Assembly: GCA_009929445.1 (NCBI GenBank)
Contig: SAAL01000001.1
Location: 13,885 to 77,884, forward strand
From: Bacteroidia bacterium
GTDB taxonomy: Bacteria > Bacteroidota > Bacteroidia > Bacteroidales > Paludibacteraceae
Direction: 5' to 3'
Length of the DNA: 64,000 nucleotides
Under the pieces are notes generated by a model that was not told where the DNA came from, searched no databases, and saw nothing but the letters and a program-made list of their open reading frames with translations. Every line of letters starts with the position of its first letter. The stretch's first letter is position 1. This document shows positions 1,596-64,000 of this stretch, piece by piece. The position numbers and the translations under genes were made by a program.

Positions 1596-1618
1596 GCCCC
1601 TAAACTCCCCGAAGGAAG
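1596..1618 (+). repeat. GC-rich repeat unit, solo, degenerate
   Basis: GCCCCTAAACTCCCCGAAGGAAG, just upstream of the thiL start. Confidence 0.6.
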
Positions 1619-1651
1619 AAAATAACAGTTAGTTGTTAAATATGTTTTTGT

Positions 1652-1891
1652 TTATGTGATAATTTTCCATTCGCCTGATTTTCTCGAACCTTCACGGTTA
1701 ATGATTTTCTTTTTTTTCATTGAAGAAATTAAGCGTTCCACTTGCCGACTTGTAATATTGAGATGTTGAGCAATTTCTAATGCAGTGATTTTGGGATTAT
1801 TTTGAATAAGTTGCACTATCTCGTTTTCATTTATTCCGACATTTGTACCGACATTTATTCCGACATCCTGTTTTTTTTGTAAGTCTTCCAT
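1652..1891 (-). CDS. small winged-HTH protein (orphan C-terminal HTH tail of the AlbA_2/RecG-like regulator type)
   Basis: 79-aa ORF. A VGINVGTNVGIN lead-in is followed by NPKITALEIAQHLNITSRQVERLISSMKKKKIINREGSRKSGEWKI. No N-terminal domain is present. It could be a gene remnant. Confidence 0.45.
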   Translation of the reverse strand: MEDLQKKQDVGINVGTNVGINENEIVQLIQNNPKITALEIAQHLNITSRQVERLISSMKKKKIINREGSRKSGEWKIIT

Positions 1892-2000
1892 AGCCCGAAG
1901 AATACTTTTCAGCTATTTCAGCAGTCAGATTAGCAATTTTTTCTGTGATATGAAAAGGTGGTATGAAGGACATTGTTTACTAAAACTCTTAAGAAACAAA

Positions 2001-2113
2001 CCACCCCAAGCCCCTAAAGGGGATGTGTAATTACTTTCGTCTCTTAATGAAATTAAATCACTTTTTTATTCGCAAACCACTCTTAAACTCCCCCTTTAGG
2101 GGGTTGGGGGGCC
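2001..2113. repeat. Inverted pair of GC-rich repeat units with an AT-rich interior
   Basis: The left unit is 2001-2024, CCACCCCAAGCCCCTAAAGGGGAT. The right unit is 2085-2113, AAACTCCCCCTTTAGGGGGTTGGGGGGCC (inverted). The right unit encodes the RpiB tail. Confidence 0.8.
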
Positions 2114-2556
2114 GCTATTTTATCAATTCTTCTCTGATGTCTGCCGCCTTCAAACCCGGTAGTGAAGAAAGCGTCAATCATCGCCAGTGCCTGTTCTTCA
2201 GTTATAAACCGTGCAGGAAGTGAAAGTACATTGGCATCGTTGTGCAGGCGGGCAAGGCGGGCAATTTCTTCGTTCCAGCAGAGCGCGGCGCGTATTCCCT
2301 GATGTTTGTTCATCACCATGCTGATGCCGTTTCCCGTTCCGCAAATTGAAATTCCGTAATCAAATAATCCTTTTTCGATAGCTTTAGCCATCGGATGGGC
2401 GTAATCAGGGTAGTCGCAGCTTTCGGCCGATTGGCAGCCGAAATCCTGTAATTTGAGCGGCGATTGATTTTGCAGGTAGTCAAATATCTTTTTTTTCAAC
2501 TCAAAACCGGCATGGTCGTTGGTAATGGCTATTCTAAGTTCTGTAACTTGTTTCAT
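2083..2556 (-). CDS. rpiB: ribose-5-phosphate isomerase B
   Basis: 157-aa ORF with NDHAGFELK, CGTGNGISMVMNKHQGIRAAL and GGRHQRRIDKI. The last 10 codons (AAPQPPKGGV) are encoded by a repeat unit. Confidence 0.9.
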   Translation of the reverse strand: MKQVTELRIAITNDHAGFELKKKIFDYLQNQSPLKLQDFGCQSAESCDYPDYAHPMAKAIEKGLFDYGISICGTGNGISMVMNKHQGIRAALCWNEEIARLARLHNDANVLSLPARFITEEQALAMIDAFFTTGFEGGRHQRRIDKIAAPQPPKGGV

Positions 2557-2633
2557 GGGAGCTGTGTTTTTTTTGTGTAATATTTTAACGATTTTTCCTA
2601 AGCCTTTTTATTTGAAGGAATTGGCAGGGCCTG

Positions 2634-3785
2634 TTACGAGAATCTTTCCACATCTTCTTTCGTAATTTTCTGGTTGCCCAGAATGATGAGCCGTTCAACC
2701 ACGTTGCGCAATTCGCGGATATTACCTCGCCAGGCGCGTTCCTGAAGCGATTTAATGGCTTTTGAATCAAACGATTTCAGCTGAATGCCCTGCTCGGTGC
2801 AAATCTGCTCCGTGAAAAAATCGACAAGCAGCGGAATGTCTTCCTTGCGCTCATTGAGCGATGGCACGTGGATTGGGATGACATTGAGGCGGTGGTAGAG
2901 GTCTTCGCGGAAATTGCCTTTCTCGATTTCCGCTTTCAGATTCTTGTTGGTAGCTGCAAAAACCCGCACGTTGATTTTTATTACCTTATCGCTACCCACC
3001 CGTGTAATTTCATTCTCCTGCAGCGCCCGAAGCACCTTGGTTTGTGCCGAGAGGCTCATATCGCCTATTTCATCGAGAAAAATGGTCCCGTTGTCGGCTT
3101 GTTCGAATTTTCCGATTCGTTGTTTATGAGCCGAAGTGAACGAGCCTTTTTCATGTCCGAAAAGTTCGCTTTCAATCAGCTCTGAAGGTATGGCAGCACA
3201 GTTTACCTCCACAAATGGGAATTGTGCGCGGTTGCTGTTTTCGTAAAGCAGGCGTGCCACCACTTCTTTCCCGGTGCCGTTTTCGCCCGTAATCATTACC
3301 CGGGCATCGGTTGGAGCGACTTTACCTATCATTTCACGTACCCGCTCGATGGCTTCGGATTTCCCTATCATCATGTTTTTGGAAGCCACTTTCTTTTTCA
3401 GTGTTTTGGTTTCGGTCACCAGCGTGTTTTTATCCAGCGCATTGCGCACGGTTACCAACATGCGGTTGAGGTCGATGGGTTTTTCGATAAAGTCAAAGGC
3501 GCCTTTTTTGATACATTCCACTGCTGTGCTGATATTTCCATGCCCTGAAATCATCACCACAGGAACTTCCAATCCCTTTTCAAGGAACTGGTCGAGGAGT
3601 TCCATGCCGTCCATTTCCGGCATTTTGATGTCCGAAAAGATGAGGTCAAATTCATCGTTGAGTGCTGTATCCAATCCCACGCGACCGTTTTCGGCCAGTA
3701 CAACCTTATGTTTTTCGAATTCCAGAATGTCTTTCATCGTATTCCGGATGCTTCGTTCGTCGTCTATCACCAGTATTTTTGCCAT
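2634..3785 (-). CDS. sigma-54-dependent response regulator (receiver + AAA+ domains, no C-terminal HTH)
   Basis: 383-aa ORF. It has a receiver domain (ILVIDDE, DIKMPEMDG), Walker A GENGTGKE, the loop ESELFGHEKGSFTSA and NIRELRN. The ORF ends about 25 aa after the AAA+ module. Confidence 0.85.
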   Translation of the reverse strand: MAKILVIDDERSIRNTMKDILEFEKHKVVLAENGRVGLDTALNDEFDLIFSDIKMPEMDGMELLDQFLEKGLEVPVVMISGHGNISTAVECIKKGAFDFIEKPIDLNRMLVTVRNALDKNTLVTETKTLKKKVASKNMMIGKSEAIERVREMIGKVAPTDARVMITGENGTGKEVVARLLYENSNRAQFPFVEVNCAAIPSELIESELFGHEKGSFTSAHKQRIGKFEQADNGTIFLDEIGDMSLSAQTKVLRALQENEITRVGSDKVIKINVRVFAATNKNLKAEIEKGNFREDLYHRLNVIPIHVPSLNERKEDIPLLVDFFTEQICTEQGIQLKSFDSKAIKSLQERAWRGNIRELRNVVERLIILGNQKITKEDVERFS

Positions 3786-3793
3786 AAGAATTT

Positions 3794-3817
3794 ATCCCTG
3801 AATCCCCCGAAGGAGAT
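3794..3817 (+). repeat. GC-rich repeat unit, solo, degenerate
   Basis: ATCCCTGAATCCCCCGAAGGAGAT, 9 nt upstream of the sigma-54 regulator start codon. Confidence 0.55.
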
Positions 3818-3885
3818 ATTTTAAATGTTACAATCTAAAAAAATGTATTTAATTTTATCTCTTTTTTCAAAACATCACTCATCTG

Positions 3886-3916
3886 ATTCGTGTAATTCGT
3901 TCCAATTCGTGTAATT
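3886..3916. repeat. Direct repeat ATTCGTGTAATT x2 (19-nt period)
   Basis: attcgtgtaatt at 3886-3897 and at 3905-3916, immediately downstream of the purD stop. Confidence 0.7.
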
Positions 3917-3922
3917 TGTAAA

Positions 3923-5197
3923 TCACAAATCAAATCCAATATCTCTCCTGAAATATTTCCCTTCAAAACCGATAATTCCGGCATTTTTGTAACAAGCAGC
4001 CAGGGCATTGTTTTTATCATTTCCATACGAACTGACGGCAATGACCCGTCCACCGTTTGTTACGATGTTTCCGTCCTTTTCTTTGGTGCCGGCATGAAAT
4101 ACGATGCTGCCCTGCACCATTTCCAGGCCTGTAATGATTTTTCCTTTCGTGTAATCTTCGGGATAACCACCCGAAACGAGCATTACGGCAGCAGCAGAAC
4201 GGGTATCGAATTCTACCGTTTTTTCATTGAGGTTTTCATTTGCCACCCCTTCGAGCAGTTCCACCAGATCAGATTTGAGCCGCAGCATCACCACTTCGGT
4301 TTCGGGATCGCCCATCCGGGCATTGTATTCGATTACGTAAGGTTCATCGTTCACTTTTATCAACCCGAAAAACACAAAACCTTTGTAAGTAATGCCGTCG
4401 CTTCGAAGTCCTTCAATGGTAGGTTTGATGATTCGCTCCTCTACTTTTTGCATGAAAATTTTGTCGGCAAAGTTTACCGGCGACACGGCGCCCATTCCGC
4501 CGGTATTGAGGCCTGTATCGCCTTCGCCAATCCGTTTGTAATCCTTGGCTTCTGGCAGGATCTGGTAGTTTTGGCCATCGGTAATCACGAAAACAGAACA
4601 TTCTATTCCCGAAAGAAATTCTTCGATGACCACCGTATCACTTGCTTTGCCGAATTTGCCGTCCAGCATTTGTTTTAGTTCGTTTACAGCCTCGTTTAGC
4701 TCATTGATAATCAGAACCCCCTTTCCGGCAGCCAGTCCGTCGGCTTTTAGTACATAAGGTGGTTTCAGGGTTTTTATGAAATCGATTCCATCTGCCAGAT
4801 TCGCAATCGAAACACTTTTATACCTGGCTGTGGGGATGTTGTGTTTTTCCATAAACTTTTTGGAAAAATCCTTGCTACCTTCCAGCCGGGCAGCCGATTT
4901 GTTTGGACCTATTACGGGAATTGCTTTCAGTGCGGCATCATTTTCAAAAAAATCAACGATTCCGTTTACCAGCGGATCTTCGGGTCCTACCACAACCATA
5001 TCAATCTGATTTGAGAGCACAGCCTGCTTCACAGTCTCAAAGTCGGAAACATGGATGTTGAGATTGGTACCTATAGTTGCTGTGCCCGGATTTCCCGGAG
5101 CAATGAATAGTTTGCTGAGTTTCGGGCTTTGAGCTATTTTCCACGCCAACGCATGCTCCCGTCCTCCCGATCCGATAAGTAAGATTTTCATTGTCAA
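3923..5197 (-). CDS. purD: phosphoribosylamine-glycine ligase
   Basis: 424-aa ORF with [26 protein letters not shown] and [10 protein letters not shown], an ATP-grasp PurD pattern. Confidence 0.95.
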
Positions 5198-5267
5198 TTT
5201 AGTTGATTATGTTTTTTTTTATATCTGACAAAACGCTGACTATTAACTGATTACTATAGCTTATAAA

Positions 5268-6506
5268 CTAATATTCCCACACCAGATATGCCGAAACCAG
5301 CCAGTGATTCAGTTCATTGCCCACCGACGACTGTGCCTCCGGAATGGAAATGGTAAGTGTGTGATTTCCGGCCTTCAAATCGCCCAACGGAATAATCTCC
5401 GGAGTAACATCGCTTCCCGGACACCAGTTGGAGCGCGATAAATCAGACGAACCGAGAGGTTCTTCGATTTCTTTTTCGGCACGTCCGTTACGTGAAATAT
5501 AAGCTACCGTTCTTTTCTGCAGCCACACACCGGTAGATGGATTGAACCTGCGGAATGAGGCACAGTCGTTTCTCCAGGGTACGAAGCGGTACACCACGTT
5601 GCCATCCACCGAGAGGATATTTTCCTTCTGCACAAATTCATCACCGCCGGAATGTCCGCCATGACCGGTTACGATGTATTTCAAACGGATATTTTTTGCT
5701 TTTTTCGGAATGGTAAACGGGATAGATACATCCCTGCGTGAAAAGATATCCGGGATGGACTGCCCCAGGTAGAAAACCGTATTGATAAGTGGTTCTACGT
5801 ATCTTCCGGGCATTTTGTCCTGCTTGATTTTGCTTTCACTGAAATCGATTTCCACGCTTACGTTGTATCCTTCCTTTGTCCATGTATCGATGTAAATTCC
5901 TACGTAAACTTCGCCCGAAAGCAGCGGTATTAAATCACTCACTTCCTGTTTCCACACCACTTCTTTTGCCCATCCGTCGATATAAACCGGCATTCTTTTT
6001 TTTGAAACTGAGTCGTTCGTTCCGCTGAAATGTCCAACTCCGAACGGAGTCATGAACCGCATGATTTCCACCGTTGGCTGATAATTGCTATCAGCTGTAA
6101 TTCCGACGAGTTTTTCGAGTTTCGTGGTGTCAACTGCAGGATAACTTGTTTTTCCGGCAGCAATATTTATCATGTTGATAGCTGAAGTTTTCGGAATAAT
6201 GAAGCAAGAACCGGATTTGTCCCACGGATCGCCGTTTGAAGTGAGGGTGATTTTGACAATGGCGGTAGTATTGCGTTTGAAAACCGGAATACTGATTTTT
6301 TTAATGGCTATCCGTCCGTTCCCCAGCCGGATTATACCGTCGGTTTCATTCACTCCGTCGGGAATTGATCCGGGATTGAACTGAATATTCATCTGCTCAA
6401 ACACCTGAATGTTGTGCACATTTTGTGCTGATGCAGGTGAAGTCAGGCAAAATGAGATAGTAGGTATAAGAACGATCAGCAGGATTTGTTTTCTTGAAAA
6501 TATCAT
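5268..6506 (-). CDS. secreted PNGase F-like protein (peptide-N-glycosidase F family)
   Basis: 412-aa ORF with a signal peptide. [25 protein letters not shown] and SNWCPGSDV resemble PNGase F as I recall it (DEWDRYANVYV, GWCPGMAV). This is recollection only. Confidence 0.5.
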
Positions 6507-6515
6507 GATAGTCAG

Positions 6516-7304
6516 CTATTTAACATCTTTCATTTCTTCGGAGAGGAAATGTTCCAGTTCTTCGGGTTTTACATTGATGGTTAGTTTTCCGTTTACAGCC
6601 CAAGAGATATGGCCGGTTTCTTCAGAAATCACAATGGCGATAGCATCCGACTGTTCGGTAATCCCCAGTGCTGACCGGTGTCTTAATCCGAGTCTTTTGG
6701 GTATGTTCTGGTTGCTCGAAACAGGCAGAATGCAGGCTGCAGCAGATAGTCTGCGGTTGGAAATGATTAATGCTCCGTCGTGGAGCGGACTGTTTTTGAA
6801 AAAAATATTTTCGATCAGCCGCGAACTGATTCGTGAATCCACGGTTTCGCCTGTCTGGGTGAAAAACAGCAGGTCGTTTTCGCGCGTAAGCACGATAATT
6901 CCACCTGTGGCGGTTTTCGATAGATTGCGGCAGGCGAGCACTATCTGAACCAGGTCATAATCGGTTTTGGTTTGCTCACTTTCGGTGTTTTTGAAGAATT
7001 TTTTGAAATAATTCAGGATGCCCCAGTTTTTGCTGGATCCCACACGCGAAAAGAAACGCTTAATCTCCGTTTGGAAAAGCACGATAAGCGCAAATGCACC
7101 CACATTGACTACCGCATCGAAAATACCGCCAAGCAGTTCCATCTTGAGCACCTGCGAAACAACGAACCAAACGATTACAAAGGTCATCACCCCGACAAAT
7201 ACAGTGGAAGCACCCGAGCGCTTCAAAACCTTGAATGTGCCGTACAACAGAACAGCCGTCAGGATGATATCTATTATGTCTTTCAATCCGATATTAAATG
7301 CCAT
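6516..7304 (-). CDS. cdaA: diadenylate cyclase (c-di-AMP synthase)
   Basis: 262-aa ORF with N-terminal TM helices followed by a DAC domain (PLHDGALII, RHRSALGITEQSDAIAIVISEETG). It lies directly downstream of folP. Confidence 0.85.
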   Translation of the reverse strand: MAFNIGLKDIIDIILTAVLLYGTFKVLKRSGASTVFVGVMTFVIVWFVVSQVLKMELLGGIFDAVVNVGAFALIVLFQTEIKRFFSRVGSSKNWGILNYFKKFFKNTESEQTKTDYDLVQIVLACRNLSKTATGGIIVLTRENDLLFFTQTGETVDSRISSRLIENIFFKNSPLHDGALIISNRRLSAAACILPVSSNQNIPKRLGLRHRSALGITEQSDAIAIVISEETGHISWAVNGKLTINVKPEELEHFLSEEMKDVK

Positions 7305-7318
7305 CAGCTATTCAGGGT

Positions 7319-8176
7319 TTATGATTGAGGTTGATACGATTTGTATTTTCCGAAAATCTTTACGGCTTCTGCAGCCTCTTTCACATCGTGAACGCGCAGG
7401 ATATCTGCTCCGTTCAGCAGACCCAGCATATTCAGTGCCGTAGTGCCGTTGAGCGATTCTTCAGGGCTGGAATCCAGGAGTTTGTAAATCATCGATTTTC
7501 TCGAGACACCACAGAGAATGGGTAATTCCAGTTGTTTGAAATAGCTCATTTTGGCAAGTAGCTCATAATTCTGATCCAGCGTTTTTGCAAATCCAAATCC
7601 CGGATCGATGATTATGTCCTTAGCACCCAGATGTACAAGCCTGGCTATTCTTTTAGAGAAAAATTCCAGTATCTCGGCAAGCATATTTTCGTACACGGTC
7701 TGTTGTTGCATGGTTTGAGGTGTGCCGCGCATGTGGGTCAGGATGTACGCAGCACCCGTATCGGCTACTGTTTCAAACATTAAATCGTCCAGCGTTCCAC
7801 CGCTTATGTCATTAATAATCTGTATATTACATTCGGTTACCGCCCAGCGTGCCACGCCGGCTCTGTAAGTATCTACCGAAATGATGGCATCCGGAAAATG
7901 TTTCCTGACCGATTTCAGGGGCTCACGCAACCTTTCCTGTTCTTCCGCTTCGGAAATGTGTCTTGCTCCCGGACGGGTGGAATAGGCCCCGATATCAATC
8001 ATGGAAGCTCCCTCTTTCAGTGCATTTTCTACACGGTTCAGCACATCCTTTTCGGTAAATAGCCTGCTCAAACCGTAAAATGAATCCGGAGTCACATTGA
8101 CAATGGCCATAATTGCCGGTTCTGACAAATCAAACAATTTACCGCCCAAATTTAACTGAAAAGGGATGGAACTCAT
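7319..8176 (-). CDS. folP: dihydropteroate synthase
   Basis: 285-aa ORF with IMAIVNVTPDSF, DIGAYSTRPG and DPGFGFAKT. Confidence 0.9.
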   Translation of the reverse strand: MSSIPFQLNLGGKLFDLSEPAIMAIVNVTPDSFYGLSRLFTEKDVLNRVENALKEGASMIDIGAYSTRPGARHISEAEEQERLREPLKSVRKHFPDAIISVDTYRAGVARWAVTECNIQIINDISGGTLDDLMFETVADTGAAYILTHMRGTPQTMQQQTVYENMLAEILEFFSKRIARLVHLGAKDIIIDPGFGFAKTLDQNYELLAKMSYFKQLELPILCGVSRKSMIYKLLDSSPEESLNGTTALNMLGLLNGADILRVHDVKEAAEAVKIFGKYKSYQPQS

Positions 8177-8232
8177 TAGAAATCACAAAATATGTTTGAT
8201 AAAAATGCGTTTCACATTAGAATTATGCTCTA

Positions 8233-8240
8233 CAAAAGTA
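8233..8240 (-). promoter_or_regulatory. Bacteroidota-type -7 box (TAnnTTTG) for folP-cdaA
   Basis: The plus strand reads CAAAAGTA, which is TACTTTTG on the minus strand, 57 nt upstream of the folP ATG. Confidence 0.35.
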
Positions 8241-8445
8241 AGAAAATAAACGCTTTTTCGCTCTGTTTTTGTAGAATTATTAAAAATTTTATAATAAAAT
8301 ATACGTTTTCTGTTTAATTTGAGTTATTTAAAAGCATTCAAAAACAACTGACTGTAAACGTCAGAATTACTTTCCGATAAAAAAACGGGGAGAAATGATG
8401 CATCTGTTTCATAAAAAATAACTTATTATTTATCATAGACATTGT

Positions 8446-10044
8446 ATGAAATTAATGAACGTTGTTAAACTGGCTGGTTTTGTTTTAGCTATTTTGCTTA
8501 CAACCTCCTGTGCATCCCGAACCGGTTCGGCCGAAGGAAAAGCAAGATCAAAACCTCCGAGAAATTCGACTGTATCTACAGCTACCGGATGGACCTATGA
8601 AAACGAAAATTTCACCGGAGCCAACGGATATGCCTCTTCGGGATTTGCAGCCCATGAAAATTATCGACCGCAAATTCCCGCCGGAATGGTGGTAGTGGAG
8701 GGCGGTACCTTTATGATGGGCGAAAAAACAGACATGATGACCGCTCAGCGCAATAACCTCACCCGCAGAGTGTCGGTAGGCTCTTTCTACATGGATCAGT
8801 ATGAGGTGAGCAATCTGAATTGGCGGGAATACGTTCACTGGATGGAGGTGGTATTCGGTGCTACCGCTCCGCGTCTGGTAGATAAGGCAAGACCCAATGT
8901 GGATAAATCAAGTGATCCGATGACCTACAACGAACCTTATCTGGATCGCTATTATTCACATCCGGCTTTCAACAATTATCCGGTGGTAGGGGTAACCTGG
9001 GAGCAGGCCATGGATTACTGCCAGTGGCGTACCGACAGAATGAACGAACTCGTACTCGTAAGAGCCGGAGTGCTGGCTGAGCCCGATTTCTCTTATGTTC
9101 AGAAAGAAAACAACCTGGATTCGATCACAAAAAACTTTGTATTCAATACGGATAAATACCTGTTGCAACGCAGTTACAATCCGAAACCCGGACCCAAGCC
9201 GCTCAAAAATGCATTTGGAGCTACAAGAAAAGCCGATATGGGCGACGGACTGATGTATCCGAATTTCAGGCTGCCTACTGAAGCCGAATGGGAATTTGCA
9301 GCTTATGGCCTGAAAGCCGAAAAAAACGGATTGCTGCCAGAAGGCCGGATTTATCCCTGGACGGGTGATCAGCTGCGTAACTCAGAAAAAGGAAAGCAAC
9401 AGGGACAAATGCAGGCAAACTACGTGAGAGGACGGGGCGATATGATGGGCACTGCCGGCGACCTGAATGACAAGTACACTACAACTGCACCTGTAAACGA
9501 ATACAAACCCAATGATTTTGGGCTGTACAACATGGCCGGAAATGTAAACGAATGGGTAATGGATGTATATCGCTCTTCATCTTCGCAGGATGTAGCCGAA
9601 TATAATCCTTTCCGTGGAAACGTTGACCGCTCGTACCTGGCTGATTTCAAGGATGAAAACGGAAATTATAACCTGAAAATCGATTCGCTCGGAAGAGTAG
9701 CCTACGTAGTGCTGCCCAGCGAGGATTTACGCGGATTCAAAGACGGATCGAATCAACTGGTTACAGATTTCAAGCTTTACACCGATCCTGAAGGCGAAAG
9801 GGCACTCCGGAATAACACACAACTGGATCCCACCGATGTGCTGGCGCCTAAAATCACGAACAAAACCCGTGTTTACAAAGGCGGATCGTGGAAAGACCGT
9901 TCGTACTGGCTCAATCCGGCTACGAGGCGTTACCTCGATCAGGATAAATCGGCCAACGACATCGGATTCCGCTGTGCCATGACCATGCTCGGAAGTATCA
10001 ACGATCAACCGGTGAAGAAAAAAACTACGGTAAAGAAGAAATAA
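8446..10044 (+). CDS. gldJ: gliding-motility lipoprotein GldJ-like (SUMF1/FGE-fold)
   Basis: 532-aa ORF with lipoprotein signal LLTTSC and FGE-type motifs GGTFMMGE, FYMDQYEVSNLNWREY, YPVVGVTWEQA, GNVNEWV and YKGGSW. Confidence 0.6.
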   Translation: MKLMNVVKLAGFVLAILLTTSCASRTGSAEGKARSKPPRNSTVSTATGWTYENENFTGANGYASSGFAAHENYRPQIPAGMVVVEGGTFMMGEKTDMMTAQRNNLTRRVSVGSFYMDQYEVSNLNWREYVHWMEVVFGATAPRLVDKARPNVDKSSDPMTYNEPYLDRYYSHPAFNNYPVVGVTWEQAMDYCQWRTDRMNELVLVRAGVLAEPDFSYVQKENNLDSITKNFVFNTDKYLLQRSYNPKPGPKPLKNAFGATRKADMGDGLMYPNFRLPTEAEWEFAAYGLKAEKNGLLPEGRIYPWTGDQLRNSEKGKQQGQMQANYVRGRGDMMGTAGDLNDKYTTTAPVNEYKPNDFGLYNMAGNVNEWVMDVYRSSSSQDVAEYNPFRGNVDRSYLADFKDENGNYNLKIDSLGRVAYVVLPSEDLRGFKDGSNQLVTDFKLYTDPEGERALRNNTQLDPTDVLAPKITNKTRVYKGGSWKDRSYWLNPATRRYLDQDKSANDIGFRCAMTMLGSINDQPVKKKTTVKKK

Positions 10045-10136
10045 CAAACTAATTGAAAGTTTTAATTTGAATTAACTGCAATTTTCATATTAGAAAAGAT
10101 GACATTTTGTCAAATCGCAAAAATATGTTAATAAAG

Positions 10137-10164
10137 CGCCTGTTTCTAAAGCAGGTGTTTTTTT
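10137..10164 (+). terminator. Putative intrinsic terminator after gldJ
   Basis: Stem CGCCTG / CAGGTG (one G-T pair) with loop tttctaaag, then a T-run. Confidence 0.45.
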
Positions 10165-10200
10165 ATTCCGAATAAATTTAGTTTAATGATTTAAAAGTAT

Positions 10201-10208
10201 TAATTTTG
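10201..10208 (+). promoter_or_regulatory. -7 box (TAnnTTTG) for asnS
   Basis: TAATTTTG, 38 nt upstream of ATG 10246. Confidence 0.45.
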
Positions 10209-10245
10209 CAGTTCAAAACACATTATATCAAAGATTTATTTTTTT

Positions 10246-11643
10246 ATGCAAAGAACAAAAATTGTTGATGCGCTGAAGAGTACAGCGTTTGGATCAGAAG
10301 TAAATGTCAAAGGGTGGGTTCGTACCCGCCGGGGAAACAAAAACGTAAGTTTTATAGCCATAAATGATGGCTCCACAATAAAAAACATTCAGGTTGTAGT
10401 TGATTTAAGCCGTTTTGACGAAGAATATCTCAAACCCATCACCACAGGAGCCTGTATCAGTGTTACCGGAAGTCTGGTGGAGTCGCAGGGGCAGGGGCAA
10501 AGTGTGGAAATTCAGGCTGACGAAGTGCTGATTTACGGATCGGCCGATCCTGAAACCTACCCCCTTCAGAAGAAAGGACACACGCTCGAGTTTCTTCGCG
10601 AAATAGCACACCTGCGTCCACGAACCAATACATTCGGAGCCATCTTCCGCATTCGCCATCAGATGGCATTCGCCATTCACAAATTTTTCCATGATCGCGG
10701 CTTCTTCTATTTTCACACCCCGATTATCACAGCTTCGGATGCCGAGGGTGCCGGACAAATGTTTCAGGTGACCACACTGGACCTGGAAAACCTGACTAAA
10801 ACCCCCGAAGGAAAAGTGGATTATTCCGACGACTTTTTCGGACGCCCGGCCAATCTGACCGTTTCCGGACAGCTCGAAGGCGAACTGGCCGCTATGGCAC
10901 TCGGGGCAATTTACACATTCGGACCAACGTTCCGGGCTGAAAACTCCAACACACCACGCCATTTATCCGAGTTCTGGATGATTGAGCCGGAAGTGGCTTT
11001 CTACGAAATAGAGGAAAACATGCAGCTGGCACAGGAATTTATCCAGTATTGCGTGAAGTGGGCATTGGATAACTGTCAGGACGATCTGAATTTCCTGAAC
11101 GAAATGTATGATAAAGAACTGATTGAGCGATTGAAATTTGTGGTGGAAAATGACTTCATACGACTCACTTACACCGAAGGGATTAAAATCCTGGAACAAG
11201 CCGTTGCCAACGGTCATAAATTTGAATACCGTGTAGGATGGGGAACAGACCTCCAATCCGAACACGAGCGCTATCTGGTTGAACAGCATTTCAAGAAACC
11301 GGTCATCCTGACCGATTATCCGCAGGAAATAAAAGCCTTCTACATGAAACTGAACGACGACGGAAAAACCGTTCGTGCCATGGATGTGCTCTTCCCGAAA
11401 ATTGGTGAAATCATCGGCGGATCGCAACGCGAGGAAGATTACGAAAAACTCAGAACCCGTGCAGCCGGAATGGGAGTGCCCGAAAAGGATATCTGGTGGT
11501 ATCTGGATACCCGCCGGTTCGGTACCGCACCGCATGCCGGATTCGGACTTGGATTTGAGCGTCTGCTGCTGTTCGTCACCGGAATGGCCAATATCCGCGA
11601 CGTGATTCCGTTCCCCCGCACGCCAAATAATGCGGATTTCTAA
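10246..11643 (+). CDS. asnS: asparagine-tRNA ligase
   Basis: 465-aa ORF with class II motifs [25 protein letters not shown] and GFGLGFERL. Confidence 0.95.
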
Positions 11644-11836
11644 CATACGAATTACAATAATTTAGGCAAATTAACGCGAATTACCGGAATATAAAAAAAT
11701 CTGAGTAGTAAATTTTTTGAACAATAAAGAAGCCAGACAAGAATGTCCGACAATTTTAATATAATAATTTGCAATTATTTAAGAATAAAGGATTTTATCA
11801 CTTTGAATTTATCTAAAATCGAAAAAAAATAGTTAT

Positions 11837-13684
11837 ATGGAAAACATTAACGTTGAAGAAATGGACAATGTCGTTGTATTGTTTGCAGGTGATTCCGGTG
11901 ACGGTATGCAGCTTACAGGCACACTGTTTTCAAACATTTCTGCCGAAATCGGTAATGAGATTTCAACATTCCCCGATTATCCTGCCGAAATTCGCGCTCC
12001 GCAAGGTACACTGGGAGGAGTTTCCGGTTTTCAGGTGCATATTGGCTCCGGAAAAATATATACTCCGGGCGACGAAGCAGACGTATTCGTAGCTATGAAC
12101 CCCGCAGCACTGAAAATTAACATCCGGAAAGTGAAAAAGGGAGGAACAATTATTTACGACGAAAACAGCTTTCAAAAAAATGACTTGACAAAAGCCGGTT
12201 TCGCCACCGATAATCCGTTCACTGAACTGGGTGTCTCTGAAACAATAACCTTAGTGCCAACTCCGCTAACCAACCTCACCCAGACAAGTCTTGAAGGTTT
12301 CGGACTGGACAATAAGGATATCCTGAGAAGTAAAAACATGTTTGCTCTTGGTCTGATTTGCTGGTTATTTAACCGCCCGATGGATAAAGCCGAACATTTC
12401 ATTCATAATAAATTCAGAAAAAAACCGGCCGTACTCGAAGCCAATCTCAAAGTGCTGAATGACGGCTTTAACTACGGAAACAACCTGCATTTAGCAATCT
12501 CAACTTACTCGATTGTCCGTTCTGACTCTACGCTCCCGGGAAAATACACCAGTATTTCGGGAAATACGGCTACAGCCTACGGACTGATTGCAGCTGCCGA
12601 AAAAGCCGGATTGCAGCTTTTCCTGGGCAGCTATCCCATTACTCCTGCTTCTGATATTATGCAGGAACTGGCGCTACGCCGGGATCTGGGAGTGAAAGTG
12701 ATGCAGTGCGAAGATGAGATTGCAGGTATTACCACAGCCATTGGCGCTTCATTTGCCGGATGTCTGGCAGCTACGAATACATCAGGCCCCGGCCTGGCGC
12801 TGAAGTCCGAAGCAATCGGACTGGCTGTAATGGCTGAATTACCACTCGTGGTGATTGATGTAATGCGTGGCGGCCCTTCTACGGGTATGCCCACAAAAAC
12901 CGAGCAAACCGACCTGCTTCAGGCATTACACGGACGGAACGGCGAAAGCCCCGTGGTGGTGATTGCTCCCGGAACACCCGACGATTGCTTTCACTATACC
13001 TTCATGGCGTCCAAAATTGCCCTGGAATATATGACACCCGTTATCGTGCTTACCGATGCATTTTTAGGAAACGGTACTTCACTCTGGAGGTTGCCCAAAC
13101 TGGCTGATTTGCCTGAAATCAAACCCAACTACGTACCGGCTGACCTGACAGGCTACAATGCCACTACGCGCAATGAAGACACCAAAGTGCGTTACTGGGC
13201 TGTACCCGGAACAGAAGGATTTGCATACCGCAACGGCGGATTGGAAAAAGACTACTACAAAGGGGGAATTTCCTCAGATCCCGAAAACCATCAGAAGATG
13301 GTGGAAACACGGGCCGCCAAAGTAAAAGGAGTGGAAAACATGATTCCCGATCTGGAAATCTTCGGTAACGAAAATGCTGATTTACTCATTGTTGGATGGG
13401 GAAGTACGCGCGGACACCTGATGAGTTCAGTTGTTTCGATGAATAAAAAAGGTAAAAATGTGGCAATGGTTCATTTCAATTACATTAATCCCCTGCCGCG
13501 AAACACCGAAGAAGTTCTGAAGAAATTTAAAAAAGTAGTAGTATGCGAACTCAATTCCGGGCAGTTTGCCGGTTACCTGCGCGCTGAAATTCCCGGTCTG
13601 AATATCCTGCAATACAACAAAGTGCAAGGTCAGCCCTTTACCGTAACGGAACTTGAAAAACAATTCGAAATCATCTTAAAATAG
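11837..13684 (+). CDS. korA: 2-oxoacid:ferredoxin oxidoreductase, alpha subunit
   Basis: 615-aa ORF with GDSGDGMQ and YPITPASD. It is followed by the TPP-binding beta subunit. Confidence 0.85.
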   Translation: MENINVEEMDNVVVLFAGDSGDGMQLTGTLFSNISAEIGNEISTFPDYPAEIRAPQGTLGGVSGFQVHIGSGKIYTPGDEADVFVAMNPAALKINIRKVKKGGTIIYDENSFQKNDLTKAGFATDNPFTELGVSETITLVPTPLTNLTQTSLEGFGLDNKDILRSKNMFALGLICWLFNRPMDKAEHFIHNKFRKKPAVLEANLKVLNDGFNYGNNLHLAISTYSIVRSDSTLPGKYTSISGNTATAYGLIAAAEKAGLQLFLGSYPITPASDIMQELALRRDLGVKVMQCEDEIAGITTAIGASFAGCLAATNTSGPGLALKSEAIGLAVMAELPLVVIDVMRGGPSTGMPTKTEQTDLLQALHGRNGESPVVVIAPGTPDDCFHYTFMASKIALEYMTPVIVLTDAFLGNGTSLWRLPKLADLPEIKPNYVPADLTGYNATTRNEDTKVRYWAVPGTEGFAYRNGGLEKDYYKGGISSDPENHQKMVETRAAKVKGVENMIPDLEIFGNENADLLIVGWGSTRGHLMSSVVSMNKKGKNVAMVHFNYINPLPRNTEEVLKKFKKVVVCELNSGQFAGYLRAEIPGLNILQYNKVQGQPFTVTELEKQFEIILK

Positions 13685-14707: not shown

Positions 14708-14709
14708 AA

Positions 14710-49005: not shown

Positions 49006-49042
49006 GTTAATAGTAAATTCATAAATTATAAATATAAATATT

Positions 49043-52044: not shown

Positions 52045-52062
52045 AAATAATGGACTTGAGCT

Positions 52063-52202
52063 GCCCCCCAACCCCCTAAAGGGGGAGTTTAGGTGCAATA
52101 TATTATATTTTGAAAAAATGAATGTTGCAGTTTTATTACTACATCAATAAATATTATAATTTTTCATACCCTCCAATATTCCCCCTTCAGGGGGTTGGGG
52201 GC
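52063..52202. repeat. Inverted pair of GC-rich repeat units between the pdxH start and the DUF3267 gene end
   Basis: The left unit is 52063-52087, GCCCCCCAACCCCCTAAAGGGGGAG. The right unit is 52178-52202, TTCCCCCTTCAGGGGGTTGGGGGCC. Confidence 0.85.
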
Positions 52203-52833
52203 CGGTAGCTTTTCTCTTATAAAAATACGTTTTCCCTTCTTTTTTTACATCGAAGGTGTAAATTTCATCGTCTTTCTGGTTTTCGAAAAAGCACAGCAGT
52301 CCAAAATCACCTCCGCAAAACAATCCGTGAAGTCCGAACAGGATCATGAAAAAATAATACAGCGGCTGTCCGTAAAAGAAAATGGCTCCTGCAAGCGATA
52401 CAAAACCAACTACAACAGCCGGAGCAAGTGCTACGAACATGAACTGTTTGTAATTCAATACTTTTTTGTCGGCTTGTACATAAAACATGAATTTTCTCAG
52501 GTTCATCCCGAACGAAAGTTTTTTTGCCCCGACCAGCAGGTATGCAATGGCATGCAGCAGTTCGTGCAGGACAATCAGAACAGTAAATGAGAACAGAACA
52601 CCCATTCCCAACCCTTCGAGCGACGCGGTATCACGCCGTGTCATGTACGGAGCAAACGCCTTTATCAATGCGAAACCGACAAGCAGAAGCCCTATGCCCT
52701 GATACATCTTGGCTATCAGCCCCCAACCCTGATTTCCTGCAATTTCACGGCGGAGAAATGGTTTGAGGTTCGAATGCTCAATTACCTCAATTTGTTCGAA
52801 AGAAGGATTGTTTAGAAGTTCTAAGTATTTCAT
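52144..52833 (-). CDS. DUF3267 membrane protein (putative zincin, HELLHA)
   Basis: 229-aa ORF with TM helices and LHELLHAIAY. The last ~20 codons (GPQPPEGGILEGMKNYNIY) come from a repeat unit plus element interior. Confidence 0.6.
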   Translation of the reverse strand: MKYLELLNNPSFEQIEVIEHSNLKPFLRREIAGNQGWGLIAKMYQGIGLLLVGFALIKAFAPYMTRRDTASLEGLGMGVLFSFTVLIVLHELLHAIAYLLVGAKKLSFGMNLRKFMFYVQADKKVLNYKQFMFVALAPAVVVGFVSLAGAIFFYGQPLYYFFMILFGLHGLFCGGDFGLLCFFENQKDDEIYTFDVKKEGKTYFYKRKATGPQPPEGGILEGMKNYNIY

Positions 52834-52880: not shown

Positions 52881-52946
52881 AGTCCCCCAAGGGGGACCTG
52901 CCTGCCGCCCCGACAGGTCGGGATAAACCAGGCAGGTTTAGGGGGC
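52881..52946 (-). repeat. GC-rich repeat unit with a nested extra hairpin, solo
   Basis: AGTCCCCCAAGGGGGAC + CTGCCTGCCGCCCCGACAGGTCGGGATAAACCAGGCAG + GTTTAGGGGGC. It lies between the DUF3267 gene start and the PNP gene stop. Confidence 0.7.
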
Positions 52947-52949
52947 TTA

Positions 52950-61064: not shown

Positions 61065-61790
61065 TTATTCCCAAAGTTTATGAAGCACCTCCACCGAGTG
61101 AAGTGTTTGAAAATCAGGCAGGTGAATTTTGTAATATTCAATGAAATAATTCAGCATCTCACCCCTTTGTTTTCTTGTCATGGGCAGTTGGCTCAGCATG
61201 CTGTAATCCATCATCGTTAGTTTTCTGAAAACATCCCCTGTTTCGGGTATCAGATAATGTGTGTGAGCCGGTTTGCTATATTCAAAAACACCGTTCAACA
61301 GATCAAAGTACTGAGCAGTTGGAGCTTCTGTTGTATCGGGTAAAAATCCAAGCCGCCCGGCAAGCTGCGCCATGAAAACCAGGTGAAAATTGCCCACGCC
61401 CTCATCACATTCATCCAGCCTGCAGACCGACGATTCGATGAAAAAGTACAAATTTTCGTCACATTCCGAATGTTTCAGCGTTTTTTGCAGCAATTCAGTC
61501 ATAAACAGCGCCAGCCCATTCTTCACCGGATCATACGGAATGTGATAAAAAGGAATGGCTATCCGCATATCCTTAATGGTCTGAATATCCTTCTTCGGAT
61601 TGTGAGATACATCAATTTCCACGATAGAAAGCGGTTGAAGCAGAGCCGAACGAGTGGCTGATTTCTTCCGGTTCGCACCACGCACCATATAGGACATTCG
61701 CCCGAATTCCCGCGTATAAATACTAACAATGCTCTGACTGTCCGAGTATTTTACTTGATGAAGTATGATGCCTGTGGTTTTTGCCTGCAT
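61065..61790 (-). CDS. recO: DNA repair protein RecO
   Basis: 241-aa ORF. N-terminal OB-fold pattern GIILHQVKYSDSQSIVSIYTREFGRMSYMVRG. Confidence 0.75.
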   Translation of the reverse strand: MQAKTTGIILHQVKYSDSQSIVSIYTREFGRMSYMVRGANRKKSATRSALLQPLSIVEIDVSHNPKKDIQTIKDMRIAIPFYHIPYDPVKNGLALFMTELLQKTLKHSECDENLYFFIESSVCRLDECDEGVGNFHLVFMAQLAGRLGFLPDTTEAPTAQYFDLLNGVFEYSKPAHTHYLIPETGDVFRKLTMMDYSMLSQLPMTRKQRGEMLNYFIEYYKIHLPDFQTLHSVEVLHKLWE

Positions 61791-61876
61791 AGTTCTATTC
61801 TTTCACAAATTTAATGAATTAAGCTGACAATACTTATTCTTTCCAATTTAAATTTCTATAAAAAATTCATTTTCAC

Positions 61877-61884
61877 TATCTTTG
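61877..61884 (+). promoter_or_regulatory. -7 box (TAnnTTTG) for valS
   Basis: TATCTTTG, 121 nt upstream of ATG 62005. This implies a long, repeat-rich leader. Confidence 0.4.
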
Positions 61885-61893
61885 CGCTTTTAA

Positions 61894-61921
61894 AAATCAG
61901 AAATCAGAAATCAGAAATCAG
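61894..61921 (+). repeat. Tandem 7-bp repeat (AAATCAG x4) in the valS leader
   Basis: aaatcag aaatcag aaatcag aaatcag, then aatttctga, which completes the palindrome TCAGAAAT/ATTTCTGA. Confidence 0.8.
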
Positions 61922-62004
61922 AATTTCTGAAAGAATAAACTGTGATTGTAAAATTCTGATTTACAATTCACTACAAACTATTAACTGCTTACTATAAACT
62001 AAAC

Positions 62005-64000
62005 ATGGAACTTTCAAGCAAATACAATCCCGCAGAGGTAGAAGACAAATGGTATCAATACTGGTTAGACAATGGATTTTTCCATTCTGAGCCTGACGAA
62101 CGCGAACCTTACACCATCGTCATCCCACCGCCCAATGTTACGGGAGTACTGCACATGGGTCACATGCTCAACAATACCATTCAGGATGTGCTCGTTCGCC
62201 GCGCCCGAATGCAGGGCAAAAACGCCTGCTGGGTTCCCGGTACCGACCACGCTTCCATTGCCACCGAAGCAAAAGTTGTGGCTCGTCTGGCTGAAAAAGG
62301 GATCAAAAAAACCGACCTTTCTCGCGATGAGTTTTTGAAACACGCCTGGGACTGGACACACGAACACGGCGGAATTATCCTGGAACAGCTGAAAAAACTC
62401 GGCGCCTCCTGCGACTGGGAACGCACAGCCTTCACGATGGACGAAATTCGTTCTGAAAGCGTGATTAAAGTTTTCTGCGATTTGCACGAAAAAGGCTTGA
62501 TTTACCGTGGTGTACGGATGGTTAACTGGGATCCAAAAGCACTTACAGCCATTTCCGACGAAGAAGTTATTCACAAAGAAGTGAATGGAAAGTTGTACTA
62601 TTTGCGTTATAAAATTGTAGAAAGCCCCTCCACCCCCCAAGAGGGGGATTCTGGTAGCTACGGCTATCAGACTTCGAAAAGTGGAAGTTACGAATTACTA
62701 AAAGAAAACGCTAAAGTAATGCGTAGCTTTTCAACAGATGCTGAAAGTGCACTTTGGCAAATGCTTCGTGGGAAAAATTTAGGTGATAAATTCAGAAGAC
62801 AACACATCGTAGGTGAGTATATTGTTGATTTTGTATGTTTGACTAAAAAATTGATTGTTGAAGTTGATGGAAAATATCATGATACTCCTGAAATGCAAGA
62901 GGCTGATAATTTCAGAACAAATTATCTGAATTCATTGGGTTTTAATGTGATTCGTTTTACAAATGAAGAGGTAATTGGAGATACTGAAAGTGTGCTCAAT
63001 AAGATTGAAAACGCACTTCAAATCCCCCCTTCGGGGGGTGGGGGGGCTTTTGTTGTCATTGCAACTACGCGTCCCGAAACGATAATGGGCGACACGGCTA
63101 TGTGTATTCACCCTGAAAACCCGAAAACGGCACATTTGAAAGGTAAAAGAGTGATTGTTCCGCTTATCAACCGTGTAATTCCTGTGATTGAAGATGAGTA
63201 CGTGGATATGGAATTTGGAACGGGATGCCTGAAAGTTACTCCGGCGCACGATGTGAACGACTACGTATTGGGCGAAAAATACAACCTGCCTTCCATCGAT
63301 ATTTTCAATGAAGACGGCACGCTCAACGAGCACGGAGCGATGTATGCCGGAATGGATCGTTTTGAGGTTCGCAGGAAAATAGTGAAAGACCTGGAAGAAG
63401 CCGGACTCATGGAAAAAATCGAAGATTACACCAACAAAGTGGGTTATTCCGAACGTACCGATGTGCCTATCGAGCCCAAACTTTCGATGCAGTGGTTTCT
63501 GAAAATGAGCGATTTAGCTAAGCCGGCACTTGATAATGTGGAAAACGACACGGTGAAATTTCACCCCGAAAAATACAAAAACACCTACCGCTACTGGATG
63601 GAAAACATCAAAGACTGGAACATCAGCCGTCAACTTTGGTGGGGACATCGCATCCCGGCGTGGTATGTAGCCCCCTCTAACTCCCCCGCAGGGGGAGAAA
63701 TTCCCGAAGATTTTCCCGTACAAGGAAATCAATACGTAGTGGCCGAGAATGAAGAAAAAGCGCGTGAAATCGCACTTTTGAAGTTTCCCTCTCTGGGAGG
63801 TTTCAGGGGAGGCTTTTCACTACGACAGGACGAGGATTGCCTCGACACCTGGTTCTCATCCTGGCTATGGCCTATTTCTGTTTTTGATGGAATAAAGAAT
63901 CCGGAGAATAAAGATATCAGGTATTATTATCCGACTAACGATTTGGTTACAGCACCCGAAATTTTGTTTTTCTGGGTGGCACGTATGATTATTGCCGGGT
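62005..64000 (+). CDS. valS: valine-tRNA ligase (5' part; continues beyond the window) carrying four in-frame repeat units and a DUF559 module
   Basis: Hand translation from ATG 62005 is open to position 64000. It gives [33 protein letters not shown] (HIGH motif), [37 protein letters not shown] and [10 protein letters not shown]. It is absent from the ORF track because it lacks a stop in the window. Confidence 0.95.
62624..63047 (+). mobile_element. Inverted-repeat-bounded cassette (~423 nt) carrying the DUF559 module, inserted in frame in valS
   Basis: The left unit is 62624-62649, GCCCCTCCACCCCCCAAGAGGGGGAT. The right unit is 63022-63047, whose reverse complement is GCCCCCCCACCCCCCGAAGGGGGGAT. 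By hand count the core is ~33% GC (62701-63000) against ~55% in 62161-62220. Boundaries are +/-2 nt. Confidence 0.75.
62689..63018 (+). other. DUF559 / Vsr-like PD-(D/E)xK nuclease module translated in frame inside valS
   Basis: [110 protein letters not shown] matches the DUF559 pattern as I recall it (LW..LR...G.KFRRQ..IG.YI.DF.C...KL.IE.DG..H ... G..V.RF.N.EV). There is an internal ATG at 62719 and no own stop codon. Confidence 0.8.
63670..63697 (+). repeat. GC-rich repeat unit inside valS, in frame
   Basis: GCCCCCTCTAACTCCCCCGCAGGGGGAG, translated as [10 protein letters not shown], right after GHRIPAWYV. Confidence 0.8.
63787..63813 (-). repeat. Degenerate GC-rich repeat unit inside valS, in frame
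   Basis: CCCTCTCTGGGAGGTTTCAGGGGAGGC, translated as PSLGGFRGG, just before [10 protein letters not shown]. It resembles the unit at 24249-24277. Confidence 0.6.

Follow-up and report, generated by a model that had tools for sequence, protein, structure and literature searches.

One of the questions raised by a 64,000-nt stretch of Bacteroidia DNA (assembly GCA_009929445.1, contig SAAL01000001.1, positions 13,885 to 77,884 of the forward strand) is why its housekeeping genes and the spaces between them are dotted with short GC-rich hairpins, mostly in inverted pairs and in part translated as protein. We refer to this whole stretch as the window and give unit coordinates on its numbering. The initial annotation of the window treated the hairpins as a dispersed repeat family that it could tie to no named class. 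Our analysis supports this interpretation, which is nevertheless incomplete, as the units are the terminal inverted repeats of an element that carries a nuclease. We consider it likely that they belong to a family of small selfish elements found across Bacteroidota, in which the full form carries an open reading frame (ORF) for a DUF559 (Vsr-like) endonuclease and is copied in a homing-like manner. By form, the window holds one complete copy, inside valS (62624-63047), nine nuclease-less pairs and several solo or degenerate ends.

Hairpin units in the window

The hairpins occur far more often than the composition of the window would give. The core CCCCC-N4-GGGGGAG, with at most one mismatch, is matched 15 times in the window, where dinucleotide shuffles lead to an expectation of 0.08. 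Under a strict scan, which requires a perfect stem of 5 or more, a 5' arm rich in C/T and a loop of 3-6, hairpins are found at 16 loci, whereas 30 third-order Markov simulations give 0.5 on average. The dispersed family is therefore real, and every one of the ten inverted pairs reported earlier was found again in its place. The density of the units had been called unusual, and this holds only in a relative sense: strict hairpins occur at ~0.25 per kb in the window, at ~0.07 per kb in the flanks of other DUF559-bearing Bacteroidota loci and at ~0.008 per kb by chance.

Each end is built from an outer box, (A)GCCCCC..AA, followed by a C/T-rich arm of 5-8 bp, a loop of 3-6 nt and the complementary G/A-rich arm. 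Near-identical 29-nt units are found at the unrelated window sites 2113 and 52063, and matched pairs, when folded as single strands, give panhandles of ~25 bp with z values of -3.7 to -4.3. Within carAB and valS, the units occupy surface loops and linkers, and in intergenic DNA they lie next to stop codons. The earlier count of twelve translated units can be divided into eight that are internal to carAB and valS and four that code for the last codons of rpiB, a biotin-ligase-family gene, pyrG and a DUF3267 gene. The similarity between partner units is also borne out, CCTCCC stems being common to the two ends of 24172-24277 and CCACCCCCC to those of 62624-63047.

Other parts of the first description need correction. 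The interiors of the pairs were described as AT-rich, which is true of the intergenic pairs only (GC 0.20-0.28), whereas the coding interiors have a GC of 0.34-0.41. The interiors of valS 63698-63785 and of the CarA-CarB linker are native host sequence, and a complete DUF559 domain between the ends of 62624-63047 had been overlooked. Among the four units taken as solos, those at 21682 and 52881 stand as composite units with nested stem-loops, whereas those at 1596 and 3794 are degenerate and were not recovered at E <= 10 by the covariance model presented below (R1).

A search of the whole window at gathering thresholds matched no Rfam family, introns included, and ARAGORN found no tRNA in it. 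This agrees with the absence of a named class for the repeats and shows that no known structured RNA family in Rfam accounts for them. No published description of in-frame DUF559 or of these repeats was found in open-access papers and preprints, and a description elsewhere is possible. Intrinsic terminators were also considered as the identity of the units, which on balance is unlikely, although the signs are mixed. Units lie 2-3 nt past stop codons, and in some of them the GC-rich hairpin leads into a T run, which is a terminator trait (GGGGAGGCTTTTTT at 21712, for instance, and GGGAGGTTTTTG at 24250 on the minus strand). A consensus terminator scan of 14000-30000 finds 17 sites against 16.9 expected and flags no unit, and the coding copies cannot terminate.

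A nuclease element with the same ends

The link between the window units and a nuclease element comes from a covariance model, R1, which was built from 42 ends of DUF559 elements from other genomes only and was run on the window with the filters off. R1 recovers all 20 paired window units, the left unit of each pair on the plus strand and the right unit on the minus strand. Ten units have E-values of at most 0.015 and 14 of at most 0.11, the remainder lying between 0.28 and 3.8; examples are 25820+ and 63667+ (2e-7), 24247- (1.6e-5), 48974- (1e-4) and 14804- (2e-4). Since a model made from foreign ends finds the window units, and on the right strand, they belong to the DUF559 element family.

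The family was collected by a contig scan with one genome per species, which gave 581 DUF559 relatives, and the best 80 loci (81 copies) were analysed. These loci are nearly all labelled as Bacteroidota, two coming from bins labelled otherwise. A perfect C/G hairpin lies within 150 nt upstream of DUF559 in 69 of the 81 copies and within the same distance downstream in 74, against a background of ~0.07 loci/kb. The two ends are genuinely inverted repeats of each other and follow the consensus (A)GCCCCC-tc-aa-[CCTCCCC]-loop-[GGGGAGG]. The window is thus not alone in holding such copies, as the same ends occur in these 80 loci elsewhere.

The complete element is 406-565 nt long and consists of a short leader and the DUF559 ORF; within genes it has neither a start nor a stop codon of its own. 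Fifty-two copies are in frame with a host ORF of at least 150 aa on each side and continuous with it, and ~15 of the 81 are free-standing. Judged from the sequences, the insert would be translated as an extra internal domain of the host protein, flanked on each side by a Pro/Gly-rich linker coded by the hairpin, and would be neither an intron nor an intein. Homologues of the valS insert are mostly Bacteroidales proteins of ~125 aa, and some are embedded in RecG, LeuRS, guanylate kinase or a sugar-modifying enzyme, between P..P.KGGE-like and LP.GE.GGA-like peptides. In total, the DUF559 element was found at at least 10 host sites. The recurrent ones are in ValRS, RecG (DEQHRFGV..^..MTATPIPRT), IleRS (two sites), LeuRS, MetRS, MetH and guanylate kinase. 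In ValRS, one and the same site (LYYLRYKI^..^ATTRPET) is occupied in Dysgonomonas, Prevotella, Paludibacter, Tannerella, Draconibacterium and Tangfeifania, and alleles of 874 aa have only a short Gly/Glu loop there.

The DUF559 sequences group by host site. The nearest neighbour is of the same site class in 44 of 56 cases, and a RecG clade of 15 is monophyletic. Phages as vectors were tried as an explanation and rejected: close relatives are essentially absent from viral contigs, and the hairpins are absent in 79 of 80 distant DUF559 relatives from such contigs, the single exception being a host ValRS.

The feature that is conserved within the units appears from the frames in which they are read. 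Among the in-frame hairpins, the three codon phases are used 27, 11 and 9 times by forward ends and 19, 2 and 29 times by reverse ends. With all three phases in use, a single fixed reading frame for coding units is rejected, and what is conserved is the palindrome, as DNA or RNA, rather than a peptide. The private variants of partner units that were pointed out in the window can be generalised to 62 elements elsewhere, in which stem variant and loop agree better between both ends of a single element than between ends of different elements (the observed value is reached in 0 of 2000 permutations). Identical stems at both ends are found in 20 of these 62 elements, against 3 expected. TAG shares its G with the box at 18% of the ends (control window, 5%), and the base at -1 is A in 57%; that the element always ends in a TAG serving as the host stop codon is only partly supported.

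Several loci of the survey deserve separate mention. End units are tandem or nested in the ValRS homologue P0240, in L007 (888-1492) and in L065 (10365-10435), as in LPSGEVGGAKSSPSGGVEGASGEIGGAKSSPSGGVEGA, and therefore ends can multiply locally. L082 holds two DUF559 elements in one 16.5-kb locus (one at 10001-10333), at the N-terminal ends of leuB- and leuC-like genes, which were recognised by short motifs only. In L018 (8375-11479), a composite unit cluster, a mini element and a full DUF559 element all lie in one ORF that resembles a glycoside hydrolase, and the family is therefore not restricted to housekeeping genes. The two loci with labels outside Bacteroidota are L010 (bin Acidaminococcaceae) and L045 (bin Limnohabitans), with DUF559 in LeuRS and in RecG, respectively. 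The L045 nuclease falls inside a RecG clade otherwise composed of Flavobacteriales and unnamed Bacteroidia bins, and these labels point to binning contamination or transfer.

The complete element in valS

The complete element of the window lies on the plus strand at 62620-63051 and is made up of a forward end (62620-62650), a leader, the DUF559 domain and a reverse end (63021-63051). The valS ORF, from 62005 to the window end, runs uninterrupted through the pair 62624-63047. R1 gives the two ends E-values of 0.015 and 0.0023. By comparison with the empty allele L004, the inserted DNA spans ~62618-63060, and the right end is fixed at 63047 by an ectopic copy, L088, that stops there.

The domain itself (62698-63018, plus strand, internal to ValRS) is a full-length match to Pfam DUF559 (PF04480; E 3.7e-35; ValRS residues 232-338), a Vsr-like PD-(D/E)xK endonuclease domain. 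The insert matches PDB 3hrl, a solved DUF559 structure, at E 5e-24 and, weakly, PDB 3r3p, the catalytic domain of the homing endonuclease I-Bth0305I, at E 0.037. Residues D47, E58, D60 and H64 are invariant in the DUF559 of 20 homologues. The domain is thus a predicted nuclease of a fold that is known to support homing.

An AlphaFold2 (AF2) model of ValRS residues 1-665 has an overall predicted local distance difference test score (pLDDT) of 47, which is too poor to place the insert relative to the enzyme, and only its local confidence was used. The DUF559 part has the highest values, 70-82, and the unit-encoded stretches 207-224 and 340-347 lie below 50; in the model, this fits a folded domain held on floppy linkers. 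Pfam finds no Hint or intein domain in ValRS, and no Cys, Ser or Thr and no His-Asn stands directly at the junctions, which read KI/VESPS and GGGGA/FVV.

A second pair in the valS frame is found at 63667-63816 on the plus strand, with a forward unit at 63667-63700 and a reverse unit at 63785-63816 (R1 E 1.9e-7 and 1.9). Both units are absent from the homologues P0121 and P0205 and from the loci L003 and L004, and the alignment shows that they flank native ValRS residues. Beside this pair, the valS identity to L003 and L004 falls from 96-98% to ~80% exactly at 63661 and stays low through the window end (64000); position 63661 is a recombination breakpoint, 9 nt before the forward unit at 63670.

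Evidence for mobility

The presence/absence check proposed in the initial annotation gave filled and empty sites in valS, in carB and in the pyrG/carAB spacer. The filled ValRS P0121 and the empty ValRS P0205 are 97-98% identical outside the insert. The empty valS site reads AAAATTG followed by AGGGAGAGGATGGT and TAC, and the filled site AAAATTG followed by TAGAAA, the element (GCCCC...GGGGGGC) and TTT, so that 14 nt are replaced with no target-site duplication. Six junction comparisons (valS, carB, the pyrG/carAB spacer and three L018 copies) gave no target-site duplication.

The valS alleles also form a mosaic. When the window is compared with L003, 1 of 424 nt is changed in the element and 77 of 1393 nt in the flanks (P 9e-10). 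The empty allele L004 matches the window without a difference over 61970-62234 and almost without one over 63096-63300; in these two segments L003 differs by ~37 and 20 nt, respectively. Over 62410-63095, it is L003 that is identical to the window. The window allele thus looks like an L004-type background with an L003-type tract of ~860 nt centred on the element. Homing with co-conversion predicts exactly such a tract.

Truncated and nuclease-less copies are found as well. L088 has a 98% identical copy of the 3' 205 nt of the valS element, ending exactly in GGGGTGGC, in unrelated AT-rich DNA upstream of a transporter gene, and it is an ectopic, 5'-truncated copy. In carB of L085, the final 31 nt of the 21-aa micro version are the same as those at the 3' end of the window's valS element. 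At the IleRS editing-domain site (..CVAQFR^..^FLAWTTTPWTLP), L058 has a full DUF559 element and L038 a nuclease-less mini element in which forward and reverse ends are separated by 22 aa. The Petrimonas ValRS P0235 has only VDDAV-SPSSEGGQGEV at the insert site, and this stretch can be read as a remnant made of the last DUF559 codons and the reverse end. In L018, a Prevotella metagenome-assembled genome, three minis of ~110 nt are 97-99% identical, with an identical interior and unique flanks, and each lies in frame in a different large ORF. They match the end of the DUF559 element on the same contig over 35 nt at 97%.

Nuclease-less copies in the window

In the CarB part of carAB, a nuclease-less mini element lies in frame on the minus strand at 25820-25938 and codes for TNSPKGGE, 18 aa and SPPLEGLGE (R1 E 1.8e-7 and 0.0023). 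The site is empty in most relatives (NDVK-YLGDHRS), with other versions in P0242 and P0294; the insert is 36 aa long in the window, 21 aa in L085 and 50 aa in P0294. In the linker between CarA and CarB, two further units lie in frame on the minus strand at 27568-27753 (R1 E 0.041 and 0.0011). They flank partly native linker residues, as seen by alignment and by DNA comparison with L085-L087, and lone units are inserted in this linker in several lineages. The carAB gene (24280-28806, minus strand) is a single ORF of 1508 aa, and its relatives in Petrimonas and Paludibacteraceae have 1437-1456 aa. The extra ~55 aa of the window protein come from the mini element (25820-25938) and the two linker units (27568-27753). 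The pair 27568-27752 was rejected as the cause of the carA-carB fusion, which is normal in the clade at 1437-1456 aa.

The remaining pairs, to which no strand is assigned, lie between genes or at their 3' ends. Between the convergent pyrG and carAB, the left unit of the pair 24169-24280 codes for the last codons of pyrG and the right unit reaches to within 2 nt of the carAB stop (R1 E 0.011 and 1.6e-5; panhandle as single-stranded DNA, z -3.9). An orthologous pair is present in L086 and the site is empty in L087. The pair 14706-14839 separates a convergent thiamine pyrophosphate (TPP)-enzyme gene and the biotin-ligase-family gene, with its right unit forming the last codons of the ligase-family ORF (R1 E 0.28 and 2e-4). 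In L087, this spacer holds just one clean unit, at the corresponding position (TAG+AA+GCCCCC). The left unit of the window pair has an extra segment, TCCCTCCCGAAACAAGTACGGGACAGGCTCGAAAGGGGA, at 14720-14760 that resembles a nested or rearranged insertion. The pair 1997-2117 lies at the 3' end of rpiB, with the last 9 codons of that gene in the right unit (APQPPKGGV; R1 E 0.11 and 0.069; z -4.3). Between a bPH_1 gene and folB, the left unit of the pair 19634-19727 begins 2 nt past the stop (R1 E 1.1 and 0.28), and L087 holds one degenerate unit there. Between a PALP (cysK-like) gene and a Cys/Met pyridoxal phosphate (PLP) enzyme gene, the left unit of the pair 48854-49007 begins 3 nt past the stop (R1 E 3.8 and 1.1e-4; z -3.8). 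At the 3' end of the DUF3267 gene, the pair 52060-52204 is entered by the ORF, which continues via the right unit into the interior (R1 E 0.1 and 0.46; z -3.7).

Among the solos, the composite unit at 21678-21721 (plus strand) lies 3 nt past a PTR2 transporter stop and has an inner perfect palindrome, TCCCGATAGCTATCGGGA, at 21690-21707 (R1 weak, E 2.5). The composite unit at 52883-52947 (minus strand) lies 3 nt from a PNP_UDP_1 stop and consists of a hairpin, a nested 40-nt stem-loop (CCTGCCTG...CAGGCAGG, 52898-52937) and the outer box TTTAGGGGGC (R1 partial, E ~3). These extra perfect stem-loops are unrelated to the units and may be nested insertions of other small palindromes. The degenerate sequences at 1596-1625 and 3794-3822, both on the plus strand, are unit-like by eye and are doubtful members.

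Recently amplified MITEs (miniature inverted-repeat transposable elements) were ruled out within the window, the interiors of its pairs being unrelated to each other and to DUF559. As far as their sequences tell, the window pairs are old, independent derivatives and not the product of a recent burst.

Proposed mechanism

Based on these data, a mechanism of homing type can be suggested. The nuclease would be made as an internal domain of the host protein and would break an empty allele or a hairpin-bearing site; a filled copy would then serve as the template for repair, as in homing. The 5'-truncated copies, minis and solo ends could come from internal deletion and from abortive or ectopic copying for which the G/C-rich ends provide the priming. 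This proposed formation of minis is similar to that of the internally deleted derivatives of eukaryotic transposons, which arise by abortive gap repair. Some minis might then amplify by using the resident nuclease in trans, and the hairpins would double as linker-coding DNA. By analogy with L038/L058, L085, P0294 and P0235, the nine other pairs and the solos of the window would be nuclease-less derivatives of full elements.

We can go one step further and suggest, more tentatively and with the odds somewhat against it, that such elements represent a third intragenic lifestyle of homing-type nuclease genes, beside introns and inteins. Their hairpins would then be terminal repeats in the DNA and, once translated, Pro/Gly linkers flexible enough for the host protein to tolerate an extra nuclease domain. 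Hairpin or cruciform ends, or else empty sites, would be the substrate of the Vsr-like nuclease, which would move without target-site duplication and spawn minis and solos; in the course of time, these would pepper the proteins and gene 3' ends of Bacteroidota with Pro/Gly loops.

Several points weigh against the proposal of a nuclease element copied by homing. We infer the nuclease activity, its substrate and the copying pathway, and the descent of the nine pairs and the solos rests on the analogy just given. The interiors of the ten window pairs have no similarity to one another or to DUF559, only the ends being common. Forward and reverse units around native residues, as in valS 63670-63813 and in the CarA-CarB linker, are not explained by a single insertion of the forward-interior-reverse type. 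In the filled sites of valS and carB, the element replaces 14-24 nt of host sequence in place of a clean insertion, and this fits old or imprecise events as well as homing. The mosaic tract in valS could also be produced by ordinary homologous recombination by chance. Two regularities are without an explanation, namely how the four arms of one element stay matched and why the intergenic units begin 2-3 nt past stop codons (6 of 6 cases). Finally, counts of stem pairs and of codons are circular, as the hairpins were pre-selected as perfect, and the pair counts were not relied on.

Alternative explanations

One different option, which we regard as unlikely, is that the ~30-nt hairpin or inverted doublet is itself what replicates, as in the repetitive extragenic palindromes (REPs) and their inverted doublets (REPINs), and that DUF559 is a largely immobile helper that acts in trans by a single-strand or structure-specific route, leaving no target-site duplication. 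A gene between inverted hairpins with many solos and inverted doublets is indeed the layout of REPs and their RAYT genes (PMC3116915, PMC3337134). The six junction comparisons without duplication, the near-identical units at 2113 and 52063, the solo units inserted alone in the CarA-CarB linker of several lineages and the REP-like location of units at the 3' ends of genes are all in line with it. Yet the nuclease gene itself is mobile, with at least 10 host sites, filled and empty alleles and an ectopic truncated copy, which is difficult to reconcile with an immobile helper. Moreover, many units lie within coding sequence, which is excluded for REPs by definition, the window doublets have no common spacers, the units have no GTAG or CGTC tag, and no transposase (HUH/Y1 and DDE included) was found among the 40 window genes scanned by Pfam, a set that leaves out the first ten genes (1-13684) and recO (61065-61790).

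A still more doubtful explanation is that the units are structural modules selected by the host, which arose and were kept in place as terminators or mRNA 3'-end stabilisers after stops and as Pro/Gly linkers in proteins. The start of the intergenic units just after stop codons and the T runs behind several of them would suit the former function and the predicted floppy linkers the latter, and the orthologous spacers of L087 carry units of different structure. Against this, one and the same box and hairpin is used in coding and non-coding DNA and flanks the nuclease gene in 69-74 of the 81 copies; identical copies occur at unrelated sites; the presence of units differs among close relatives; and, with three phases in use, no single peptide can have been selected, while the terminator scan of 14000-30000 flagged no unit. 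Least probable of all, and in our opinion hardly credible, is that the inserts are intervening sequences, in which paired ends form a long mRNA stem and the segment is spliced, processed or skipped by the ribosome to give a host protein without the insert. GC-rich mobile inserts that are bypassed by ribosomes do occur in yeast mitochondria, and both the ~25-bp panhandles of matched pairs and the co-variation of the two ends of one element would fit such a stem. However, the inserts are always open and in frame, the nuclease ORF relies on host translation, the segments between the ends in valS 63670-63813 and in the CarA-CarB linker are conserved native protein, and neither an Rfam intron family nor a Pfam Hint/intein domain was found.

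Comparison with known systems

The element behaves most like a Vsr-like homing endonuclease gene that lacks the usual intron or intein. I-Bth0305I is a proven homing endonuclease and the prototype of the Vsr-like 'EDxHD' family, and PDB 3r3p is its catalytic domain (PMC3239194). The window element has in common with such genes a Vsr-like PD-(D/E)xK fold (the match to 3r3p being weak, E 0.037, and that to 3hrl strong), residence at fixed, conserved sites of essential genes with host-site-specific clades, and filled and empty alleles in which the tract flanking the element is common with another filled allele. In contrast, it has no surrounding group I intron or intein, its ORF being kept in the mature frame between hairpin-coded linkers, and it is without the N-terminal NUMOD/helix-turn-helix (HTH) DNA-binding region described for I-Bth0305I. 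We know of no homing endonuclease genes with GC-hairpin terminal inverted repeats and nuclease-less progeny, both of which are present here.

Inteins are similar in that a selfish, nuclease-bearing insert is translated in frame at conserved sites of essential proteins (aminoacyl-tRNA synthetases, RecG helicase) and in that alleles with and without the insert exist. Unlike inteins, the element has no Hint splicing domain, no Cys/Ser/Thr junctions and no His-Asn, and the insert presumably stays in the host protein. MITEs resemble the window copies in their terminal inverted repeats, small size and AT-rich interiors, in nuclease-less copies that have the ends of the coding element, and in the near-identical copies amplified in one genome, as in L018. 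They differ from the present elements, which show no target-site duplication at the examined junctions, come with no DDE or other transposase among the 40 window genes scanned and replace 14-24 nt of host sequence.

The REP/REPIN-RAYT systems likewise have GC-rich imperfect palindromes of ~30 nt, single or as inverted doublets and often just after genes, with one enzyme gene between two inverted units and no target-site duplications. REP palindromes have a GTAG or CGTC tag at one end, according to PMC3733652, whereas the units here begin with (A)GCCCC and have no such tag. The enzyme here is a PD-(D/E)xK nuclease (DUF559) and not a HUH tyrosine transposase, its gene is found at many sites, and the units are often intragenic and translated (8 window units are ORF-internal). 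The window doublets have no common spacer, while the three minis of L018 do have an identical one. The Rickettsia palindromic elements (RPEs) are short palindromic repeats that lie in frame in unrelated housekeeping genes, where they contribute additional peptide segments yet leave the host protein intact (PMC10969869), and further copies are found in intergenic DNA, as here. They belong to another phylum and have other sequences, so that the likeness, judged by description, is one of behaviour only. RPEs are ~100-150 bp long with no known autonomous partner, whereas here the ends are GC hairpins of ~30 nt and the full form encodes a nuclease.

Implications

If the proposed reading is true, selfish nuclease genes colonise conserved sites of essential enzymes (ValRS, LeuRS, IleRS, MetRS and RecG) throughout a phylum with no splicing machinery. 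This would explain why, in Bacteroidota, many housekeeping proteins exceed their orthologues by 130-180 residues and contain a "DUF559" domain, and it would account for many short Pro/Gly-rich inserts and C-terminal extensions of annotated proteins. DUF559, a large domain of unknown function, would gain a testable role. For protein engineering, the inserts would provide a natural list of places where essential enzymes tolerate an insertion, and with it a compact design for linkers. In practice, the repeats can break assemblies, lead gene callers to false fusions or truncations and mark sites of recombination, such as the breakpoint at valS 63661.

Neighbouring genes

The part of the window that was scanned by Pfam contains housekeeping genes, including one for GldH. 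Logan metagenome contigs match the window at 100% identity, and its likeness to Petrimonas sequences suggests an origin close to that genus, tentatively within Dysgonomonadaceae. The GC content is 0.51 over 48001-50000, which covers the cysK-like and Cys/Met PLP-enzyme genes, against ~0.43 in the rest of the window. At 30198-31469 (minus strand) and 30210-31376 (plus strand), two long ORFs overlap on opposite strands, and the minus-strand ORF has no Pfam family. In the syntenic locus L087, a DXP reductoisomerase gene is called between the same neighbours, which code for M23 and M50 peptidases, and the plus-strand ORF 30210-31376 is therefore probably the real gene, dxr.

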